Part shown: piece by piece, positions 20,981 to 53,312 of the stretch
How the letters are laid out: each line of letters begins with the position of its first letter
Position numbering within the stretch: the stretch's first letter is position 1
DNA from: Escherichia phage vB_EcoM_IME537
Strand: one strand, 5' to 3'
DNA length: 64,000 nucleotides
Sequence record: NC_054921.1
Position numbers and translations under genes: made by a program
The notes under the pieces: model-generated
Seen by the model: only the letters and a program-made list of their open reading frames with translations
What the model was told of the DNA's origin: nothing
Database searches by the model: none

Positions 20981-21302
20981 TTAGTCTTCTATGATATCTC
21001 TATCATATCCAAGTGAAATGAGAGTTTCTTTGAAGTGTTTAATGTTCTTTTGTCTAGAATCATTGATGAAAATGACTGGATAACGAATGTTAAGAGATGT
21101 GAATCCAGCGCGTTTAGCAAGAGATACAATCAGCGGACGATCATACTCAATCTTACCATTATTTGTAAGAACTTTATAGAAAGTAAAAGGAGCATTGAGC
21201 TCCTTTAGAAGTTTTGTAACTGATTGACATCCAGGACAACGACCTACTTCATCTGGAATTCCATAGACTTCAATCTTATTCTTTAAGTTCGAGTTTTGTT
21301 CC
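20981..21302 (-). CDS. nrdH: glutaredoxin/NrdH-like redoxin (CPGC active site)
   Basis: CPGC motif in ...KIEVYGIPDEVGRCPGCQSV...; true start uncertain (possible GTG near 21302, or ATG near 21355). Confidence 0.45.
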
Positions 21303-21587
21303 ACGAGAAATAATTCCTTGATAAGCCCAGTATGGCGGGTTAACAGAATCATCGCCAGAATTTTCTTCAGGAAAATAAACCTGGATAACAAATCCAGATG
21401 CATCAAAGGTAAAATAAACCGTAGGTAATTCACCTAACAATTCAGCACGGTTATTAATTTCTTCGAGTTCTCGTTCTCGTCCAGCCCAAAAACTAGGATT
21501 TAGATTACATTCATAGAAATAATAGTCATTACCGAACATATCAAAACCCTTCCAACTCTCTACCACATACCGCTCAAAACTAATCAT
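21276..21587 (-). CDS. hypothetical protein
   Basis: 103 aa ORF. Confidence 0.4.
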   Translation of the reverse strand: MISFERYVVESWKGFDMFGNDYYFYECNLNPSFWAGRERELEEINNRAELLGELPTVYFTFDASGFVIQVYFPEENSGDDSVNPPYWAYQGIISRGTKLELKE

Positions 21588-21589
21588 AA

Positions 21590-21829
21590 TTAAGCCTTTT
21601 TATCAAGAACAGCATTCAGTTTGTTAGTAATTTTATCCAGACGCTCATTGAACTCGCTAGAAGACAGTCCTTTTTCTGGAGAAATTAAGCTAATCACGAA
21701 AAATATAGCAATAAAAGGAATAAGAAAAATAGCACCAACTGCCATAAACAAAAAGAACGTCACAGTTGTAAGAAAATCAGCTAAACCTTTACGAAATTTA
21801 TACATATTTACCCTTAATTTATTAACCAA
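21590..21829 (-). CDS. small membrane protein
   Basis: 79 aa with a long hydrophobic segment (FLTTVTFFLFMAVGAIFLIPFIAIFFVISLI). Confidence 0.45.
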   Translation of the reverse strand: MVNKLRVNMYKFRKGLADFLTTVTFFLFMAVGAIFLIPFIAIFFVISLISPEKGLSSSEFNERLDKITNKLNAVLDKKA

Positions 21830-21919
21830 GCATTGATAAGTACTAAACTATACTGCGAATAAAATTCTGGACCAAAATGAAAAATCATATCATTTATAGT
21901 ATCAATAATATAATTCAGT

Positions 21920-22390
21920 TTAATCATGTTTCCACACCCCATCGGTATTTGACCAAAGCCGCTGATTATCTGAACCTCGCCACAGCTTTTTGGTCGGAAG
22001 ATTTTTCTCATACTTCCCATCAATAATAACATCAACATATTTAAGCATTTCTAGTTGTTTAATATCTTCAAACTTATATCCTGTCCACAACCAAATGCTT
22101 TTATTCGGATAAAGATTTTTTACCGTTTGAACAATGCAATGAACATCATCTCGGTTATCAGGATAAAGAGGGTCTCCTCCAGTTATAGTTAATCCTTCTA
22201 TATAATCATTATTCAAACATTCAATTAATTGTTCTAGTGTTTCACCAGTGAATGGAACGCCATTTCTAGCATTCCATGTTGATTTATTATAACACCCTTC
22301 ACATTTATGCAAACACCCCGTAACGAAAAGAACGACCCTGCATCCAGGGCCATTTACAAAATCGCAGGGATAAAATCTATCGTAATTCAT
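21920..22390 (-). CDS. nrdG: anaerobic ribonucleotide reductase activase NrdG (radical SAM)
   Basis: 156 aa with CxxxCxxC cluster motif (CLHKCEGC). Confidence 0.88.
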   Translation of the reverse strand: MNYDRFYPCDFVNGPGCRVVLFVTGCLHKCEGCYNKSTWNARNGVPFTGETLEQLIECLNNDYIEGLTITGGDPLYPDNRDDVHCIVQTVKNLYPNKSIWLWTGYKFEDIKQLEMLKYVDVIIDGKYEKNLPTKKLWRGSDNQRLWSNTDGVWKHD

Positions 22391-23680
22391 TGGTGTTTAA
22401 CCCTATGCATGATTTCTTTATTTTTGCCGAGATTAAATCCGCGTTCATTCGGATTTCCCAAATAACCACAAGTTCTTCTTATTGTGTTCATCTTTTTAGG
22501 ATCAGTTTCTCCACAAACAGAACAAACAAATCCGTTTTCAGTAGGAGTCATTTCATGGGTACTTCCGCATGTAAAACATTTATCTACTGGCATATTAACA
22601 CCAAAATAATCTAAATGTTGTGCAGCATAATCCCATACAGCCTCAAGACCTTTTAGGTTATTTTTCATATCAGGAAGTTCAACATAAGAAATGTGACCAC
22701 CTGTCGCAATGAAATGATATGGGGCTTCGCGAGAAATCTTTTCAAACGGAGTAATATTTTCTTCTACTGAAACGTGGAAACTGTTAGTGTACCAGCCTTT
22801 ATCAGTAACATCCTTTACACTTCCATATTTTTCGGTATCAAGTTTACAGAAGCGATAGCACAGGTTTTCAGCAGGTGTAGAATACAAACTAAAAGCAAAA
22901 CCGGTTCTTTCAGTCCACTGCTTAAGATGAGCATTCATTTTAGTTAAAATTTCTTGTCCAATATCACGACCGACAAGAATATTCAATTCGTGAATACCAA
23001 TGTATCCTAAGGACACTGAACTTCTACCGTTTTTAAATAACTCAATTATATCGTCATCAGGTTTAAGACGAACCCCGAATGCGCCTTCTTGGTAAAGAAT
23101 AGGAGCAACAGTAGCTTTAACTCCTTTTAAGGAACTAATTCTACACATCAATGCTTCAAAACATAAATCCATTCGCTCATTGAACAATTCGGCAAATTTC
23201 TGTTCATTGAACTGTGTTCCAATATAAGAATCTAACGCAATGCGAGGAAGATTCAGTGTTACAACACCAAGATTATTACGTCCATCAAGAATTTCATTAC
23301 CAGTCGAATCTTTCCATACACTCAAGAAACTACGACAACCCATTGGAGAAACAGGAATAGATGAACCGGTGATAGCTTTATTGTTCTTAGCCGAAATGAT
23401 GTCAGGATACATTCTTTTGCTTGCACACTCTAGAGCAAGCTGCTTAATATCATAGTTCGGATCGTCTTTATAAAGATTAACACCTTCTTCAACGAACATA
23501 ACAAGTTTAGGGAAAATAGGAGTTATCCCATCACGACCGAGACCTTTAATACGATTTTTCAGAATTGCTTTCTGAATCATTCGTTCAGTCCAGTCAGTTC
23601 CCGTGCCAAATGTAATTGTTACAAAAGGCGTTTGTCCATTAGAGCTGAAAAGTGTATTTACTTCATCATTATATTCAGCA
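22387..23680 (-). CDS. nrdD: anaerobic ribonucleotide reductase NrdD, exon 2 (C-terminal part; 5' boundary approximate)
   Basis: Class III RNR C-terminal region incl. Zn-ribbon cysteines (CFTCGS...CSVCG) and glycyl-radical-type C-terminus; reading frame interrupted upstream by about 1 kb containing a homing endonuclease ORF. Confidence 0.8.
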
Positions 23681-24724
23681 TGAGTCGCAAATTCATGCCC
23701 GTTTATATGAAACAACAAAATTTGGATAGTCCATAGATATGCAACGTTCTTTTATAGTGCTAGGATGAAAATTTAGCGCTTTAGCTGCTTCTATATAAGA
23801 CGTATACTTAATACCGTCAACAACCACATATTCAGGAACTTTATGAATAGTAGTCTTAATACTCAAAACAAGAGGATGAGTTTCGACTTCACTTTCAGTG
23901 CAATTTAAATATTCCGCTGCTTTTTTAAAACTTCTAAAAGTTTTATTTTTAAGCTTTATCGATACTTGTTTTTTACTTTTTCGACTATTGATATTATTTT
24001 GCACATGTTCCTTAGATCTTCCGTTTTTAGCATAATATTCAGCTACAGAAGATTTTATATTGTTTTTATGAGATTCGGATAACACTTTACCCTTATGAGC
24101 ATCTCTTAATTTTTGAATATGTTCTTCAGTATCCGGATGCTTATAAAACTTTTTACCGCCTATGGATTTATTTAAACATTTTTTGCTATAAAAATATTTA
24201 CGTATGACCTCTTCTTCATGTTTTAATGCATCTTTATAACTATCAAATGTTTTTAAAATTATCCATTTAGTAGGTGTATCAGTTTTTAAGCGTTCATTTA
24301 TATACTTAGATGACGTTGTGTAAGTTTTCCAGTTTGTGGGCTTGTTTTTAATTGTTCTAAATTTTTTATAACCGATATAAATGTCGCCATTAGAAAACTT
24401 AACTAAGTATGTAAATGCGTCTTTATCTTTTATTTTAGTACAACGTCTTTTTATCCATTTCATTGTTTCACCTCGTATTCATAAGATAATCTTATTTATA
24501 CAAGATGACTGCTGCATGTCGCCATGCAGATTAGACTATATCTTCATCTTTCGATGCCGGCCGTTTCGAATAGCATTAGCTTCTATTCTACACCGCTACA
24601 TTCATCACGGTTAGTCGTTAGGCATTTAGTTCAAAAGAACATTTAGCACGGGATTGTCTACTAGAGAGGTTCCCCGTTTAGACCGGTTTTACATGAGCCT
24701 GAATTAAATTAACTCATAAGCTTG
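23681..24724 (-). mobile_element. group I self-splicing intron in nrdD (boundaries approximate, +/-20 nt)
   Basis: nrdD split into 181-aa and 443-aa ORFs; intervening GC-richer non-coding core (about 24470-24720) plus GIY-YIG endonuclease ORF; matches the known T4 nrdD (sunY) intron arrangement. Confidence 0.75.
23693..24463 (-). CDS. intron-encoded GIY-YIG homing endonuclease (I-TevII-like)
   Basis: 256 aa; N-terminal GIY-YIG module (FTYLVKFSNGDIYIGYKKF); located inside the nrdD intron. Confidence 0.8.
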   Translation of the reverse strand: MKWIKRRCTKIKDKDAFTYLVKFSNGDIYIGYKKFRTIKNKPTNWKTYTTSSKYINERLKTDTPTKWIILKTFDSYKDALKHEEEVIRKYFYSKKCLNKSIGGKKFYKHPDTEEHIQKLRDAHKGKVLSESHKNNIKSSVAEYYAKNGRSKEHVQNNINSRKSKKQVSIKLKNKTFRSFKKAAEYLNCTESEVETHPLVLSIKTTIHKVPEYVVVDGIKYTSYIEAAKALNFHPSTIKERCISMDYPNFVVSYKRA

Positions 24725-25249
24725 GAATGCATCGTATACGTCTTTTTCTGTTTTAGATTGGGCATAATTCAATGCATCAGCGATTTGCCATTTTTCTGCA
24801 TCCTCAATATGTTTTGCATAGGTGCGTTTAACATAAGGAGAAAGTACTTTATCTACATTCGCAAAAGTCGTTCCGCCATATTGATGAGAAGCAACCTGCG
24901 CAGTAATTTGTGCCATAATTGCAGTAGCAACGCCAATTGATTTAGGAGTTTCAATCTGCGCATTACCAAGCTTAAATCCGTTCTCAAGCATTCCTTTTAA
25001 ATCTACTAAACAACAATTAGTAAATGGAAGAGCAGGGGAATAATCAATATCGTGGAAATGGATAATTCCGCTTTCATGCGCTTTCATAATAAAAGACGGG
25101 ACCATATTTTTGGCAATGTGTTTAGACACAATACCAGCCATAAGGTCCCGTTGAGTTGGAAAAACACGAGAATCTTTATTAGCATTCTCGTTTAAAAGGT
25201 CTTTATTAGTTTTATGAATCAATCCTTCAATTTCTTTTTCAATTGTCAT
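24725..25249 (-). CDS. nrdD: anaerobic ribonucleotide reductase NrdD, exon 1 (N-terminal part; 3' boundary approximate)
   Basis: N-terminal NrdD region (MTIEKEIEGLIHKTNKDLL...); the ORF-track stop at 24704 lies inside the intron. Confidence 0.8.
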
Positions 25250-25719
25250 TTTAAACTCTTTCTAAGCTGCTTCTTAAATGAAGCTATTAATTGTGTTTTG
25301 GTGTCAGATTCATTATATTCAAATCCTCTTTGAAGCATCTCAGCTATCATTTCCTCTTTTCCTAAACGAGAAAATTCCTTTGATTTATCTCCAACAAAGT
25401 TAGGGTGAATATTATTTTGGGTGTAATCGGATTTTAAATAAGTAAGTAAATTTTCTAACCATTCAAGATAATCAACGCCTTGTCCCTTTAAGCCAGAACG
25501 ATTAAATTTGTGCTTCATTTGACCTTCCGCAGCATTGCAGAGATTACAGAGCAATCCACGTACCTTTCCTGCTTTTGGTCCATTTAATTCATGGTCATGG
25601 TCAAGGTGATTAGCTTGAACATCAGGATTTAGTTCTCGTTGGCAAATTAAGCATTTACCGTTTTGTGCATTATAAAATTTTTGTTTTTCTTCTTTGTATA
25701 ATTTGCCAGTCAATAACAT
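25246..25719 (-). CDS. 49: endonuclease VII (Holliday junction resolvase) gp49
   Basis: 157 aa, Zn-binding CxxC...CNLCN; near-identical to T4 endo VII from memory. Confidence 0.9.
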   Translation of the reverse strand: MLLTGKLYKEEKQKFYNAQNGKCLICQRELNPDVQANHLDHDHELNGPKAGKVRGLLCNLCNAAEGQMKHKFNRSGLKGQGVDYLEWLENLLTYLKSDYTQNNIHPNFVGDKSKEFSRLGKEEMIAEMLQRGFEYNESDTKTQLIASFKKQLRKSLK

Positions 25720-25756
25720 AATAAAACCCTTACCTTGAATAGATAAGGGTATTTAT

Positions 25757-25936
25757 TATTTTCAAGTATTGTAAAACATTCGATGCAATCGCTTATATTG
25801 TCGAATCATCTTTTTAGTAGGACGAGAATAAGTTCCTACACAAGTGGTCATATTAGGGTCAGTAGGACTTCCTTTAATAAAAAGTTTCCAGACTTTACCA
25901 CCATTTAGCTTTTCAGTATAAATCAATTCAGTTTTC
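25757..25936 (-). CDS. hypothetical small protein (below ORF-track threshold)
   Basis: Hand-translated about 59 aa ORF (MKTELIYTEKLNGGKVWKLF...). Confidence 0.25.
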
Positions 25937-25937
25937 A

Positions 25938-26402
25938 TTAGAATGGCCTATCAGAAAAAGAAATTTGAGTTTCAAGCCATTCAATATATTCTGCCGCAGC
26001 TTGCATCAAATTTCCTTCATAACCATCGTTGTTTTCTTGCGCAGCTAATTTAGCTAATGCATATGAAATGCGTTCACCCTGAAAAGCGGCTTTAGGTTTA
26101 TGAATAGCTTGATCAACTCGTTCTACAACTTCTTCAATTTCGCCATTTTCTACTGATTCAGTATTCCACAAGCACCAATACGTAATTGGCTTATCATAGA
26201 TGTTAATAACCTTTCCGTCAGAAAGTTCAATTTCAATAATTCCAGTATCAGGTTCTATGTCATCTTCACATTCTTTTACAAGTTCACGAACTTTAAAGAC
26301 AGTACCTGCACTAAGTTCCGGCCAGTAATTACACAGCCCCTTATCAGCACGATTAATTCTAAACCACTTATCTACTGTAATCATGTCCCATCTCCATATC
26401 AA
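25938..26402 (-). CDS. hypothetical acidic protein at the pin position (possible Lon-inhibitor PinA homolog)
   Basis: 154 aa ORF between 49 and nrdC; track start is TTG; assignment by position only. Confidence 0.3.
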   Translation of the reverse strand: MIWRWDMITVDKWFRINRADKGLCNYWPELSAGTVFKVRELVKECEDDIEPDTGIIEIELSDGKVINIYDKPITYWCLWNTESVENGEIEEVVERVDQAIHKPKAAFQGERISYALAKLAAQENNDGYEGNLMQAAAEYIEWLETQISFSDRPF

Positions 26403-42974: not shown

Positions 42975-43436
42975 TCATTGAGTTTTAATTACTGCTTTAG
43001 AAGCCTTTCCTGGTAAACGACGACTGTTGATAATTGCCATCCTACATTGAAGTGACGGGTCTTTGAACTTCGCGTTAGGTTTACAAACTGTAAATCCAAG
43101 CCAAAGATTTCCATCTGTGATTTCTAAACGTCCAGGACGATATTCAACCCCATCAATAAAATCCTCGTCAATGTCAGGACGCGGAGGCATACTCAGGAAT
43201 TCATTAACTTCTAAAACATGGTCTTTTATTTTGTGGAATAATTCAAAAACATATGTCTCATCAATCTCCCGTTGAATTGCACGGTCAAGAAGATGCTGAG
43301 AATATTTTAGATGAAACGATGAGACCCCTGCTGCTTTTGATGCCTCACGAATCTCATTGTTAATTTGACGAAACTCCGACTCAAAGTGACGACGAAGCTT
43401 ATTTCGACGGATAAAAACTTCTGTATTGATAGTCAT
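42975..43436 (-). CDS. regB: RegB endoribonuclease
   Basis: 153 aa, near-identical to T4 RegB from memory. Confidence 0.88.
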   Translation of the reverse strand: MTINTEVFIRRNKLRRHFESEFRQINNEIREASKAAGVSSFHLKYSQHLLDRAIQREIDETYVFELFHKIKDHVLEVNEFLSMPPRPDIDEDFIDGVEYRPGRLEITDGNLWLGFTVCKPNAKFKDPSLQCRMAIINSRRLPGKASKAVIKTQ

Positions 43437-43460
43437 ATTATTCTCCTCTTAACTGATAGA

Positions 43461-43494
43461 AAAATTATACCACAGTCAAGAGGAAAAGTAAACA
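43461..43494 (-). promoter_or_regulatory. T4-type early promoter upstream of regB
   Basis: Minus strand GTTTACttttcctcttgactgtggTATAAT. Confidence 0.55.
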
Positions 43495-43495
43495 G

Positions 43496-43816
43496 TTATT
43501 CTTTAAATCTAATCAATTTATTCATAGACTTTGAAACTTCTGCACGAACCTCATGTAGATTTTTGAGCTGTTCAAGACGCTGCTCATAGTAAGCAATTTC
43601 ATCTTCTTCGAGACAGTCCTGTGAATCTTCTTTAAGATAACGTGCATAGTCCTGGAAAGCGTTACGAACTACTTCCTGGAAGTCATCAAGACTTTGAATT
43701 TTCTTAGGAGCAACAGATACACGACGAGGGGCAGTATAATACTCATAACCAAACCCTGCGCTTAATTGGGCCATTAATATTTTTCCTCTGGTTGGAACAC
43801 AGCACGGCAAGCCCAC
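43496..43816 (-). CDS. hypothetical protein (vs.3 position)
   Basis: 106 aa ORF. Confidence 0.4.
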
Positions 43817-44076
43817 ATACTGGCTTCTTTGAGCTTCGTTTTAGCAATAGTTAACTGATCGATGCTTTCAGCATAATTCTTCGCGAATTCATAGTCTTCG
43901 CAATTATTTAGCACTTCCCAGAATTCGTCATATAAAGCATCAAAGATAAGTCCTAAACGAACTTCAGCGTCTTTAATAGCATTTACTTTACCGATTTTCT
44001 CTTCAGTGTGCGGCTTATAACCTTTAATATCTTCAATCATATTTGACTTCCTCACCAGTACATAAATCGTATTCAA
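43774..44076 (-). CDS. hypothetical protein
   Basis: 100 aa ORF. Confidence 0.4.
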
Positions 44077-44254
44077 CTAAACGAATAGGTTCATGAATTC
44101 CATATCCTTGAACAGAAATTTCTGTCGTAGGATAAATTCCATCAATATCGCCCATATTCCACGCTTCATTAAATTGCTGTTCGCCTGAATTACTAAACCA
44201 CTCGGCGAAAGCATTTAGCACATCTTCAGAACCTTCAATAATTATCTTTGCCAT
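44033..44254 (-). CDS. hypothetical small acidic protein
   Basis: 73 aa ORF. Confidence 0.4.
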   Translation of the reverse strand: MAKIIIEGSEDVLNAFAEWFSNSGEQQFNEAWNMGDIDGIYPTTEISVQGYGIHEPIRLVEYDLCTGEEVKYD

Positions 44255-44616
44255 TACAAACTCTCAGTAAAGGTACGAGCAATAACGTCGCGTTGCTGTT
44301 CCGGAGTCAGAGAGTTAAAGCGAACTGCGTATCCGGATACACGGATGGTCAGCTGCGGATATTTTTCCGGATGCTTAACTGCATCTTCCAGAGTTTCACG
44401 ACGCAGAACGTTTACGTTCAGGTGTTGACCACCCTCAATTTTAACTGTAGGCTGTGTTTCAATTTCAATTTCACGGGCATGCAAACCATAGAAAATTTCT
44501 GGGTCTACAAAAGAGTCCTCTTTAAAGGTTTTAGAGACAATAATTCGTGCTTGAATACCATCTTCAAAATAAATAGTACCTTTATGTGTGCCTTCAAGAA
44601 TTTGATATGCTTTCAT
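44254..44616 (-). CDS. autonomous glycyl-radical cofactor (GrcA/YfiD-like)
   Basis: 120 aa; C-terminal glycyl-radical signature RVSGYAVRF and a C-terminal about 60 aa that match my recollection of E. coli GrcA; local GC content visibly higher than flanking phage DNA. Confidence 0.7.
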
Positions 44617-44623
44617 ATAAACC

Positions 44624-45004
44624 TCAATTAGAAAATAAATTTATCCAAGATTGTTCTTTAATTAAAAATGGCTCAGAATCATATGCCATTAAACTCTGTG
44701 TGATTAGTCCTTTAAAAGGCCCATCAATAAATTCCATGGTAAAGTATGGAATTTTATTCATTAATCTCGCATTAGGAGCAGTACATAAAACTCTGCATCC
44801 TTTGAATACGCCTTTTTGCAATTTGTATTGCTTAGGATAAAATTCGCTTAAAATGTTATTTTTTGCCAAAATTTCAAAATGATTCACCAATTTATTTTTA
44901 ATAGTTTTTGGTGAAAAATAAAGATATTCGAAAAGCTGAGTGTCTGTCATCATTGCATTCCGATTACGAAAAACTGTGGACGAGTAATACCACCAATGCA
45001 GCAT
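44624..45004 (-). CDS. hypothetical protein
   Basis: 126 aa ORF. Confidence 0.4.
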
Positions 45005-45540
45005 TTACTATTGCAGCAGTGTTGCACAGTTTCAATATGAATATCGTAAATTTTATCCATATCAGGAGATTTAACAGGCTCATCGATTATATACAAAATT
45101 CGAGAAAGCGATAAACCTCTGAACTTGCTACCTCTATTACCAACAAAACTACGGACAGAATCAGTAAATAAACGGAATCGAATATCATCGCTAGAATAAC
45201 GAGAAAATTCTTTTTTAATGCGGCCCGCAGAAATTTTAGCGTAAGCTGAAGTATTAGAAAGAACAATAACTGTTCCACCATCATACAACCAATTAGCGGC
45301 AAAATTAGTTACTGCAGTTGATTTACCAGATTGTCTGCCACCATCTAAACGAAGTGTACAATATTCTTTAAATAAATGCGACGAATCAGGTACATAAAAT
45401 CCACTATTACAAATTTCTTCTACTCTAGCATCAGAATGGTGTGTAAAAGCATTCATCAGGGATAGATAAGGACCAGTTAAAAATGTTCTCATTTTATTCT
45501 CTCTAAATTTGGGCCATTCCATGGCGCATGAATTGTCCAT
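44950..45540 (-). CDS. P-loop NTPase-like hypothetical protein
   Basis: 196 aa; Walker A GGRQSGKST, Walker B-like LYIIDEP. Confidence 0.45.
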   Translation of the reverse strand: MDNSCAMEWPKFRENKMRTFLTGPYLSLMNAFTHHSDARVEEICNSGFYVPDSSHLFKEYCTLRLDGGRQSGKSTAVTNFAANWLYDGGTVIVLSNTSAYAKISAGRIKKEFSRYSSDDIRFRLFTDSVRSFVGNRGSKFRGLSLSRILYIIDEPVKSPDMDKIYDIHIETVQHCCNSKCCIGGITRPQFFVIGMQ

Positions 45541-45633
45541 TTCTGTATTTACCCATTACCGCACTTGGGCTCGACCTTATTACAGGTTGGCGGGAATCCC
45601 TCACAGAATCATGAGGTCCAGGTTGTTCCCATG

Positions 45634-46107
45634 TTATTTGAACGATTTAACGTACTGAATAGAACCTTTACTATTCACGAAAGCGATTTTACCATTTTTA
45701 TTATACATGGTAGCAGTACGCTGATAACCATAAGTTTGTTTACCAGATTGATAACCAACTAATGCGAAATTATCTTCACCCATTTTATTCTGTTTAGCGC
45801 GAATACGTTCATGTCCATGCGCCATAAGAACCTTAGCATCACCAGTTGCAATGGATCGACGAGTTTTTTCATCTTCAACTGTATTAACAAAATCATCAAA
45901 TGAATCAAATTTAGCATGAGATTTATTATACAGTTTTCCATCTACTGCATAATTATATCCCTGTACATCCATCTCAACTTCTGTACCATCATCTAATACA
46001 GCAGTAATTTTCTGTCCTTTTTTAAATTTCAAAAGATCAGTAAAAGATTCAGCAATAATTTGAGAATTAATAGCTGCTTCAGTAATAAATTCTTGATATG
46101 TTTTCAT
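45634..46107 (-). CDS. internal-protein-like head protein with capsid-targeting leader (ipIII/ipII locus)
   Basis: 157 aa; N-terminal MKTYQEFITEAA matches the T4 internal-protein capsid targeting sequence; located next to e. Confidence 0.55.
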   Translation of the reverse strand: MKTYQEFITEAAINSQIIAESFTDLLKFKKGQKITAVLDDGTEVEMDVQGYNYAVDGKLYNKSHAKFDSFDDFVNTVEDEKTRRSIATGDAKVLMAHGHERIRAKQNKMGEDNFALVGYQSGKQTYGYQRTATMYNKNGKIAFVNSKGSIQYVKSFK

Positions 46108-46147
46108 ATGTTTCCTTTAAATGTAAATATTTTAATTAGTAACTGTG

Positions 46148-46181
46148 AATATACTATCACAGTTCTAGGAGAAAGTAAACA
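46148..46181 (-). promoter_or_regulatory. T4-type early promoter
   Basis: Minus strand GTTTACtttctcctagaactgtgaTAGTAT. Confidence 0.45.
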
Positions 46182-46184
46182 ACT

Positions 46185-46715
<531 letters not shown>

Positions 46716-51204: not shown

Positions 51205-51253
51205 CTTATTTCCTGTTCTAATTCGTGGATTTAATATATTATATTTATACTAA

Positions 51254-51280
51254 AAAGCCCCAACCTTTCGGTCGGGGCTA
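51254..51280 (-). terminator. rho-independent terminator (near-duplicate of 50700-50726)
   Basis: gccccaacctttcggtcggggc hairpin followed by TTTTT on the minus strand. Confidence 0.6.
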
Positions 51281-51284
51281 AGCC

Positions 51285-51586
51285 TTGCGGCAACCTTGTA
51301 GGGGTTCCACCTGCTAAGGCAAGTGTTTGTACGAAACGCCGGGATTCGAACCCGGTTATTAAGTAGTTGACGCTACTCAATATTTTTAAAAGGCCATATC
51401 TCGACCATATCCGAACGTTCCGTCAAAAACGCTACTCGGCTTACGGCAAAGATATTTCCTCGAATCGATAATTCGGTGCGCCGTTTCTGCTGTGATAGTA
51501 AAGAGCCAGAACACAGTAAAACTGTGGGAGGAAACTATACTCCAGGGAACATCAGTCCGACGACTTACCGGTAGCGACCCGGTTTC
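51285..51586 (-). ncRNA. stable small RNA region (T4 species 1/2, rnaC/rnaD-like) distal to tRNA-Arg
   Basis: About 300 nt without ORF, GC-richer, containing a tRNA-like T-arm (ccgggttcgaatcccgg on the minus strand); position matches the T4 rnaC/rnaD locus. Internal boundaries not resolved. Confidence 0.45.
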
Positions 51587-51955: not shown

Positions 51956-52031
51956 TGGTCGAGGCAGTAGGGATCGAACCTACGACCTAGGACTTAGAAG
52001 GTCCTTGCTCTTCCTTCTGAGCTATGCCCCG
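51956..52031 (-). tRNA. tRNA-Arg (anticodon UCU)
   Basis: Cloverleaf by hand: acceptor CGGGGCA/TGCCTCG, anticodon loop CTTCTAA, T-arm GGTTCGATCC. Confidence 0.8.
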
Positions 52032-52741: not shown

Positions 52742-52813
52742 TGGCCCTGGGTGGAATTGAACCACCATCTGGCGATTATGAGTCGCTTGCTTGAACCTTC
52801 CAGCTACAGGGCC
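52742..52813 (-). tRNA. tRNA-Ile (anticodon CAU)
   Basis: Acceptor GGCCCTG/CAGGGCC; anticodon loop CTCATAA. Confidence 0.8.
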
Positions 52814-52819
52814 TTGATA

Positions 52820-52892
52820 TGCTGATTGACGGAATCGAACCGCCGACATCCTCATTACAAGTGAGGTGCTCTACCTACTGAGCTAAATCAGC
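52820..52892 (-). tRNA. tRNA-Thr (anticodon UGU)
   Basis: Acceptor GCTGATT/AATCAGC; anticodon loop CTTGTAA. Confidence 0.8.
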
Positions 52893-52899
52893 GAAATTA

Positions 52900-52986
52900 C
52901 GGAGGCGATAGGATTTGAACCTATGAGTCGCCGGAGCGACTGCCGGTTTTCAAGACCGGTGCATTAAACCACTCTGCCACGCCTCC
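52900..52986 (-). tRNA. tRNA-Ser (anticodon UGA), long variable arm
   Basis: Acceptor GGAGGCG/CGCCTCC; anticodon loop CTTGAAA; 87 nt. Confidence 0.8.
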
Positions 52987-52988
52987 AG

Positions 52989-53062
52989 TCTCCGCGGCAG
53001 GATTTGAACCTGCGACATTCTGCTCCCAAAGCAGACGCTCTACCAAACTGAGCTACACGGAG
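52989..53062 (-). tRNA. tRNA-Pro (anticodon UGG)
   Basis: Acceptor CTCCGTG/CGCGGAG; anticodon loop TTTGGGA. Confidence 0.8.
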
Positions 53063-53074
53063 TAAATTAAATTT

Positions 53075-53146
<72 letters not shown>

Positions 53147-53151
53147 AAATT

Positions 53152-53238
53152 TGGTGCGAGAAGTGGGACTCGAACCCACAAGGAAATCATTCCGCAGCAT
53201 TTTAAGTGCTGTGCCTTTACCAATTTGGCCATTCTCGC
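53152..53238 (-). tRNA. tRNA-Leu (anticodon UAA), long variable arm
   Basis: Acceptor GCGAGAA/TTCTCGC; anticodon loop CTTAAAA; 87 nt. Confidence 0.8.
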
Positions 53239-53239
53239 G

Positions 53240-53312
53240 CTGGGAATAAAGGACTCGAACCTTTGCATCCTGGAATCAAAATCCAGTGCCTTACCAACTT
53301 GGCTAATTCCCA
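53240..53312 (-). tRNA. tRNA-Gln (anticodon UUG)
   Basis: Acceptor TGGGAAT/ATTCCCA; anticodon loop TTTTGAT. Confidence 0.8.

Follow-up and report, generated by a model that had tools for sequence, protein, structure and literature searches.

As related in later articles (Wagner et al. 2001, cited in PMC8683613 and PMC13450708), the phage T4 protein Y06I, product of gene vs.6, restores oxygen-cleaved pyruvate formate-lyase (PFL) in vitro, as does YfiD (GrcA) of Escherichia coli. YfiD consists of a disordered segment (residues 1-60) and a structured one (residues 61-127) by nuclear magnetic resonance (NMR); tight binding to cleaved PFL and efficient installation of the radical both depend on its N-terminal half (PMC8683613). 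The phage gene had been listed earlier as a conserved T4-like open reading frame (ORF) with a Gly_radical match (Nolan et al. 2006, PMC1524935). Here, we analyse vs.6 in 64,000 nucleotides of DNA from Escherichia phage vB_EcoM_IME537 (NC_054921.1), a stretch called the window throughout. With a probability that we put at roughly 0.85, vs.6 encodes a phage autonomous glycyl-radical cofactor that descends from an old GrcA homologue and whose radical-domain part was overwritten from host grcA.

The two halves of vs.6

The gene and its parts are the following:

44254-44616, minus strand: vs.6 (orthologue of T4 Y06I), GrcA-like autonomous glycyl-radical cofactor of 120 residues; ORF with ATG start
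44254-44438, minus strand: host-type patch, from the second position of codon 60 to the stop, coding for the structured glycyl-radical domain; near-identical to E. coli grcA DNA
44440-44616, minus strand: phage-type 5' half, codons 1-59; assigned by GC content, codon usage and conservation across genera
44317-44343, minus strand: glycyl-radical motif RVSGYAVRF, residues 92-100; from the translation and alignment to YfiD and PflB
44332-44334, minus strand: codon of the radical glycine G95, aligned with PflB Gly734

The ORF is the Tequatrovirus gene vs.6 (T4 Y06I), and hence a gene already known: its product and that of T4 are identical at 119 of 120 residues, and the labels vs.6 or autonomous glycyl radical cofactor GrcA are attached to it in RefSeq/GenBank entries of more than 500 close phage relatives. 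The GrcA/YfiD-like cofactor proposed in the initial annotation is borne out by the domain and structure matches: the Pfam domain Gly_radical (PF01228) covers residues 60-101 and reaches the end of the model (E=2.2e-18), the top match among solved structures is E. coli YfiD/GrcA (6owr, E=4.6e-42, aligned over YfiD residues 28-127), the second is the C-terminus of PflB (residues 697-759, E=4.8e-26), and G95 lies within RVSGYAVRF. The stand-alone size of about 14 kDa, the Gly_radical domain, the RVSGY loop and a homologous N-terminal half are all features of GrcA-type proteins found in vs.6. Two classifications speak against a plain GrcA assignment: the product scores 154.6 bits with the NCBIfam equivalog model TIGR04365 (spare_glycyl), below its cutoff of 170 (E. 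coli GrcA, 233.9), and its PHROGs family, phrog_1209, is filed as function unknown. The TIGR04365 shortfall arises because the N-terminal half is divergent, and the protein is best described as belonging to a phage subfamily (PHROG 1209) of autonomous glycyl-radical cofactors.

The two halves of the gene have different relatives. Residues E61-L120 are identical at 60 of 60 positions to E68-L127 of E. coli GrcA, so the near residue-for-residue match given in the initial annotation is exact here, and every nucleotide difference from E. coli grcA within this segment is synonymous. By blastn, nucleotides 179-363 of vs.6 match E. coli grcA at 96.8% identity, with a match in 5,426 of 5,426 E. coli genomes, and a codon-by-codon comparison places the abrupt onset of this identity at nucleotide 179 (second base of codon 60). 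Compared with the NMR structure of YfiD, this junction falls 7 residues into the structured domain. When the whole window was compared with the same genomes, a single match was obtained, at 44250-44438. Composition and codon choice change together: nucleotides 178-363 have 47.8% GC (z=+3.0, top 0.5% of the 186-nucleotide windows; mean of the 64 kb, 34.8%) and a GC content at third codon positions (GC3) of 0.42, the highest value among 54 long ORFs of the window being 0.33. Their codon usage falls in the lowest 3% of 61-codon windows drawn from the window's own ORFs (z=-2.05), leucine being encoded by CTG in 5 of 6 cases (8% in the phage) and proline by CCG in 3 of 3 (16% in the phage).

The 3' half, with its 60/60 residues and its 96-100% nucleotide identity to E. 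coli grcA, could suggest that the whole gene is a recent copy of the host gene. We consider this highly improbable: blastn finds no nucleotide match to the 5' 177 nucleotides in the 5,426 E. coli genomes, their product is 28-32% identical to the N-terminal half of host GrcA with a 7-residue difference in length, and they have the GC content (33.3%, GC3 0.19) and the codon usage (z=+0.83, typical of window ORFs) of the phage. Moreover, this 5' half is conserved among phage genera and is common to phages of other genera and hosts at 72-98% nucleotide identity (72-74% between Tequatrovirus and Klebsiella Jiaodavirus). The initial annotation had taken the coding DNA as a whole to be GC-rich and host-derived. 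Both statements stand for the 3' half, nucleotides 179-363 being host DNA, but the low GC of the 5' half means that the elevation does not extend to the whole coding region, and the phage-type 5' 177 nucleotides are not those of a recent whole-gene capture; the gene as a whole has 40.8% GC (z=1.8). The alignment and the composition and codon comparisons that it had proposed divide the gene at the same place: the 3' half is host-like in nucleotides, residues and codons, but the 5' half has no nucleotide match and is typical of the window. Neither a weak similarity to GrcA nor a GC content and codon usage like those of the neighbouring genes was found.

An extreme constraint or convergence, acting on the protein, the codons or the RNA, might produce nucleotide identity without any transfer, and the domain is indeed almost invariant across Enterobacterales (59-61 of 61 scored positions, that is 60 residues and the stop codon). 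Because the protein is so constant, the synonymous sites carry the donor signal, and they make this explanation extremely improbable. Hosts with the same or nearly the same peptide differ at 13-17% of nucleotides: over the last 186 nucleotides, the positions matching the window number 179 in E. coli, 176 in a genome of an Escherichia cryptic clade, 163 in Citrobacter amalonaticus and about 154 (~83%) in Salmonella and Klebsiella, which encode nearly the same protein. Other phages with nearly the same peptide are 75-83% identical in nucleotides, and the codon choices of the 3' half are E. coli-like and atypical for the phage. For allele comparisons, we used a core of 173 nucleotides (window 44264-44436), in which the window has 3 differences from an O157-TR01-type E. 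coli allele, 18 from Citrobacter, 28 from Salmonella and 25 from K. pneumoniae; T4 has 0 of 173 from an SK1144-type E. coli allele, with 178 consecutive identical nucleotides overall. The synonymous divergence (dS) of the window 3' half from Escherichia is low, 0.14 for the closest E. coli allele and 0.14-0.26 over the set of four Escherichia alleles; the values for Citrobacter (0.74) and Salmonella (1.19) are higher. Within host grcA, the 5' and 3' halves show similar divergence (dS 0.50/0.42 for K-12 vs Citrobacter, 0.91/1.06 for K-12 vs Salmonella), from which we conclude that the 3' segment belongs to the host lineage and is a foreign piece in the phage. As judged from these alleles, the donor of the Tequatrovirus 3' half is most probably Escherichia, with transfer from host to phage.

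An assembly artefact caused by contaminating host reads would also leave an abrupt change in composition, the one observation in its favour. We regard this as barely conceivable: the vs.6 junction is shared by 633 independent phage records, T4, T2 and RB69 among them, which match the 3' half of E. coli K-12 grcA at 95-99% identity and come from Escherichia, Shigella and related phages; moreover, the reading frame is intact and the 3' end (GAG AGT TTG) is still that of the phage. A frame change is seen in another phage, Escherichia phage vB-Eco-KMB39, in which vs.6 (L180:1255-1672) carries a 55-bp tandem duplication from the phage/host junction, with AGTTAAAATTGAAGGTGG...CGTGAAACT present twice; because of the resulting frameshift, the gene is annotated as two separate coding sequences, and this copy is either a natural pseudogene or an assembly error.

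The 5' half is itself related to GrcA. An hhalign comparison of 8 phage with 8 host N-terminal halves aligned them end to end (probability 95%, E=3.5e-8, 28% identity), and the 5' half appears to be an old phage sequence homologous to the N-terminal half of host GrcA rather than an unrelated fusion partner. The N-terminal half is under purifying selection: between T4 and Mosigvirus, the nonsynonymous divergence (dN) of the 5' half is 0.05-0.06 and its dS 0.40-0.46 (dN/dS ~0.14). Homologues of vs.6 were found in 1,587 phage records, from Tevenvirinae of Escherichia, Klebsiella, Enterobacter and Citrobacter to Aeromonas and Vibrio phages, a jumbo Yersinia phage and T5-like phages. The same two-part protein is encoded by Karamvirus, Slopekvirus, Pseudotevenvirus, Krischvirus, Aeromonas phage 31 and the T5-like phage SPC35; their 3' halves differ from each of the sampled host alleles at 26 or more of the 173 core positions and seem to be of the old phage type. 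In the simplest history, an ancestral GrcA homologue would have been borne by phages for long, across Straboviridae and T5-like phages, before the part coding for E61-L120 was overwritten, presumably by homologous recombination with host grcA and with retention of the phage N-terminal half. In this way, Tequatrovirus and Mosigvirus would have acquired an E. coli-type patch and, independently of them, Klebsiella Jiaodavirus a K. pneumoniae-type one.

Host matching and possible recurrent exchange

Host grcA DNA of K. pneumoniae, K. variicola, K. michiganensis and K. oxytoca was obtained by protein search and contig look-up. The 3' half of K. pneumoniae grcA matches 79 phage records at 95-99% identity, nearly all of them Klebsiella or Raoultella T4-like phages. 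Klebsiella phage Mineola is an example: it has a phage-type 5' half, a junction at the same codon as in the window and a patch with 2 differences from the K. pneumoniae allele between alignment positions 28 and 191, against 22/173 core differences from E. coli; its patch carries the host-specific residues L77 and E81 (E77 and K81 in the E. coli type). That the same segment of vs.6 (~165-180 nucleotides) has been replaced by host-genus-specific DNA at least twice is well supported by these alignments. The matching is not universal, and this counts against a general rule: the Salmonella grcA 3' half has no phage match above 84%. Two Klebsiella phages, KP179 and PKO111, are only 84-88% identical to Klebsiella grcA, which at first sight speaks against host matching in Klebsiella phages; they simply carry diverged alleles, and many other Klebsiella phages are 97-98% identical to the K. 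pneumoniae allele.

Several records with Klebsiella-type sequence deserve separate mention. The Salmonella phage PSE-D1 (Jiaodavirus, L194) has a Klebsiella-type patch with 5-6 core differences from K. pneumoniae/variicola, which may record a previous host. The Klebsiella phage vB_Kpn_AM_K4, a 288.7-kb Straboviridae record (Jiaodavirus genomes being ~165 kb), contains a Jiaodavirus-type vs.6 (L193:224-586) with a K. pneumoniae-type patch, which adjoins transfer RNA (tRNA) genes and has neither vs.5 nor vs.4 downstream. A full-length host-type grcA is present on 'plasmid unnamed4' of Klebsiella sp. WOUb02 (275 kb, L023), a record that could represent a chromid or a piece of chromosome under the wrong label.

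Exchange may also have recurred within a phage genus. Between T4 and Mosigvirus, dS falls from the 0.40-0.46 of the 5' half to 0.07-0.12 in the 3' half (about 4- to 6-fold), and for each of the two 3' halves there is an E. coli allele from which it differs at 0-1 core sites; between KP179 and PKO111, the contrast is the opposite, 0.245 (5') vs 0.635 (3'). Four core sites are commonly polymorphic in E. coli grcA (V68 GTT/GTA, R73 CGC/CGT, G95 GGT/GGA and I112 ATC/ATT) and give a series of nested alleles. The same four sites are also polymorphic in Tequatroviruses, where the window has the four derived states and T4 one. The probability that the six core changes of the window include the three of the O157-TR01 allele by chance is 5e-5 to 2.4e-4 (uniform or AT-biased models). 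These three shared variants could be read as proof of a separate capture, but the sites assort independently among phages, and the evidence is no more than suggestive.

Several points weigh against repeated capture: (i), the shared sites occur in all combinations among phage alleles, including those of HY01, SG1, SP21535 and EcNP1, and the shared variants show four-gamete violations within Tequatrovirus; (ii), recurrent mutation together with recombination between phages could explain these violations without repeated capture from the host; (iii), recombination events were counted from a sample of a few dozen alleles, those of E. coli having been sampled by similarity class to the window. Repeated host capture within Tequatrovirus may thus be called suggestive, as read from the alleles, and we lean only slightly towards the broader proposal that virulent T-even phages recurrently exchange the radical-domain half of vs.6 with the host chromosome by homologous recombination. 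If this proposal is true, vs.6 offers an example, at domain resolution, of gene conversion from host to lytic phage; if such exchange still goes on, re-sampling of host alleles would keep the phage spare part fitted to the PFL of the local host. We found no description of the vs.6 mosaic or of such host-phage conversion in the searchable literature, which does not extend to older subscription papers.

Proposed role in PFL repair

A mechanism may be suggested from the work on T4 and E. coli. Oxygen would cleave the activated host PFL at Gly734; the vs.6 protein would bind the truncated enzyme; the host PFL-activating enzyme PflA would then install the radical on Gly95; and the C-terminal domain of vs.6 would take the place of PFL residues ~693-759, so that the conversion of pyruvate to acetyl-CoA and formate is restored. 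PFL rescue is proposed for the vs.6 of this phage because of its 119/120 identity to T4 Y06I, and the use of host PflA and PflB because its radical domain is identical to that of the host. The rescue of oxygen-damaged PFL by the T4 homologue, mentioned in the initial annotation, corresponds to the work of Wagner et al. (2001) on Y06I, as related in PMC8683613. The benefit to the phage would be a continued supply of acetyl-CoA, fermentative ATP and formate in gut-like hosts under micro-oxic or fluctuating oxygen. Formate is the reductant of most characterised class III ribonucleotide reductases (RNRs), according to PMC4493059, and the supply restored by vs.6 would feed the class III RNR of the phage. 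The genes of this enzyme, nrdD and nrdG, do lie in the window, as initially annotated, nrdD being split:

21920-22390, minus strand: nrdG, anaerobic ribonucleotide reductase activase (Pfam Fer4_12, 2e-48; Radical_SAM)
22387-25249, minus strand: nrdD, class III ribonucleotide reductase, in two ORFs, 24704-25249 and 22387-23718 (Pfam NRDD, 1e-40 and 9e-123; Gly_radical, 1e-25)
23693-24463, minus strand: ORF within the nrdD insertion, 256 residues, homing-endonuclease-like (Pfam SegE_GIY-YIG, NUMOD1)

The insertion in nrdD (~985 nucleotides, called from the ORFs alone) resembles the T-even nrdD intron, and a search of 21000-26000 for a group I intron returned no Rfam family at gathering score.

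Three points temper this functional proposal. The experiments concern the T4 protein only, and we infer from them that the vs.6 protein of this phage would repair PFL as in T4; the searchable literature yielded no in vivo phenotype for vs.6; and the link from vs.6 to NrdD through formate is one that we only infer.

The presence of nrdD and nrdG in the same window, and the role in nucleotide metabolism guessed in an early genome paper (PMC1524935), would also fit a protein that serves as a spare part for the phage NrdD after oxygen cleavage rather than for host PFL. We judge this very unlikely: a BLASTP comparison of vs.6 with the C-terminal region of the window NrdD, the exon-2 product, which has its own Gly_radical domain, gave no significant similarity (E=4.2), the vs.6 domain is 100% identical to that of host GrcA and close to PflB 697-759 (E=4.8e-26), and PFL rescue is the only rescue demonstrated for Y06I (PMC8683613). 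On these sequence grounds, direct repair of NrdD by vs.6 appears unlikely. The protein might instead act against the host, as a decoy that titrates PflA or occupies damaged PFL and so redirects or shuts down fermentation; the part that diverges from the host is precisely the N-terminal half, which in YfiD governs the binding of cleaved PFL and the installation of the radical. This too is unlikely: T4 Y06I reconstituted PFL activity in vitro (Wagner et al. 2001, via PMC8683613), the catalytic domain is exactly that of the host, and the dN/dS of ~0.14 in the N-terminal half is as for a working spare part. Repair of host PFL by a phage spare part is the reading that we retain.

Neighbourhood of vs.6 and comparison with known systems

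The gene lies between vs.7 and vs.5, on the same strand, in the early region that extends from regB to e, in agreement with the annotations of PD112, T4, SA20RB and CAM-21; the order in the window is e (46185-46679) ... vs.8, vs.7, vs.6, vs.5, vs.4, vs.3, regB. Over the 3 kb around vs.6, nucleotide identity is 98.9% with Escherichia phage PD112 and 96-97% with a large number of further Tequatrovirus genomes.

44624-44953, minus strand: vs.7, upstream neighbour, function unknown (mapped from the PD112 annotation; PHROG 2049)
44622-44625, minus strand: Shine-Dalgarno sequence GAGG, 5 nucleotides upstream of the vs.6 ATG and adjoining the vs.7 stop; read from the sequence
44033-44254, minus strand: vs.5, downstream neighbour, function unknown (ORF and PD112 annotation; PHROG 1986)

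The TAA stop of vs.6 overlaps the ATG of vs.5 (TAATG), which suggests translational coupling. A scan of 43300-46300 found no terminators around vs.6, and its 15 promoter-like sites, with 11.6 expected, do not point to a promoter. The vs.4 ORF (43774-44040, minus strand), which lies two genes downstream of vs.6, contains the Acb2/Tad1 hairpin domain (Pfam PF24729, E=1.6e-19), which we take to be that of a phage cyclic-nucleotide sponge family countering CBASS/Thoeris defence. Two other GC-rich stretches of the window were noted. The first, 1592-1796 inside the ORF 1367-2794, has a GC content of 0.49, as high as that of the vs.6 patch, and has no nucleotide match in the 5,426 E. coli genomes. 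The second, 51205-51586, reaches 50% GC, has no ORF longer than 49 residues and lies just downstream of a tRNA-Arg gene (51956-52031) and a cluster of seven tRNA genes (52742-53312); no Rfam family was found in it, and it may, we presume, correspond to the T4 small stable RNAs rnaC/rnaD.

The gene itself is textbook-level for T4 specialists, and what the analysis adds is a mosaic that is sharp at the level of the domain and matched to the host genus. The patch is the only host DNA in a 64-kb window of a virulent phage, and it ends at a protein-domain boundary. It provides a countable marker of the frequency with which strictly lytic phages that degrade host DNA undergo recombination with the host chromosome. 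As a natural domain swap, with the catalytic half fixed by the host and the recognition half free to evolve in the phage, it could also inform how spare-part proteins recognise damaged glycyl-radical enzymes.

Among known systems, T4 Y06I is the closest: it has the same locus, regB-vs.3-vs.4-vs.5-vs.6-vs.7-vs.8, and the same chimera junction, and differs at one residue of the N-terminal half (T54 in the window, P54 in T4) and by 7 synonymous differences in the 3' half, where V68 GTA, G95 GGA and I112 ATT of the window are those of the O157-TR01-type E. coli allele and T4 has the SK1144-type allele. Like E. coli GrcA/YfiD (6owr, TIGR04365), vs.6 encodes a stand-alone protein of ~14 kDa with an identical radical domain and an N-terminal half homologous over its full length; unlike it, the phage protein is 7 residues shorter, is only ~28-32% identical in the N-terminal half and is encoded in an early/middle phage operon, E. 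coli grcA lying between ung and eamB. With the C-terminal domain of PflB (~693-759), vs.6 shares the fold segment and the RVSGYAVRF loop, this being the piece that the spare part replaces; the catalytic barrel and the Cys418/419 site of PflB (759 residues) are absent from the phage protein. The vs.6/GrcA proteins of Klebsiella Jiaodavirus (Mineola, KP17), finally, have the same length of 120 residues, a phage-type N-terminal half and a junction at the same position, but their patch is K. pneumoniae-type DNA and encodes L77 and E81, where the phage studied here has E77 and K81.

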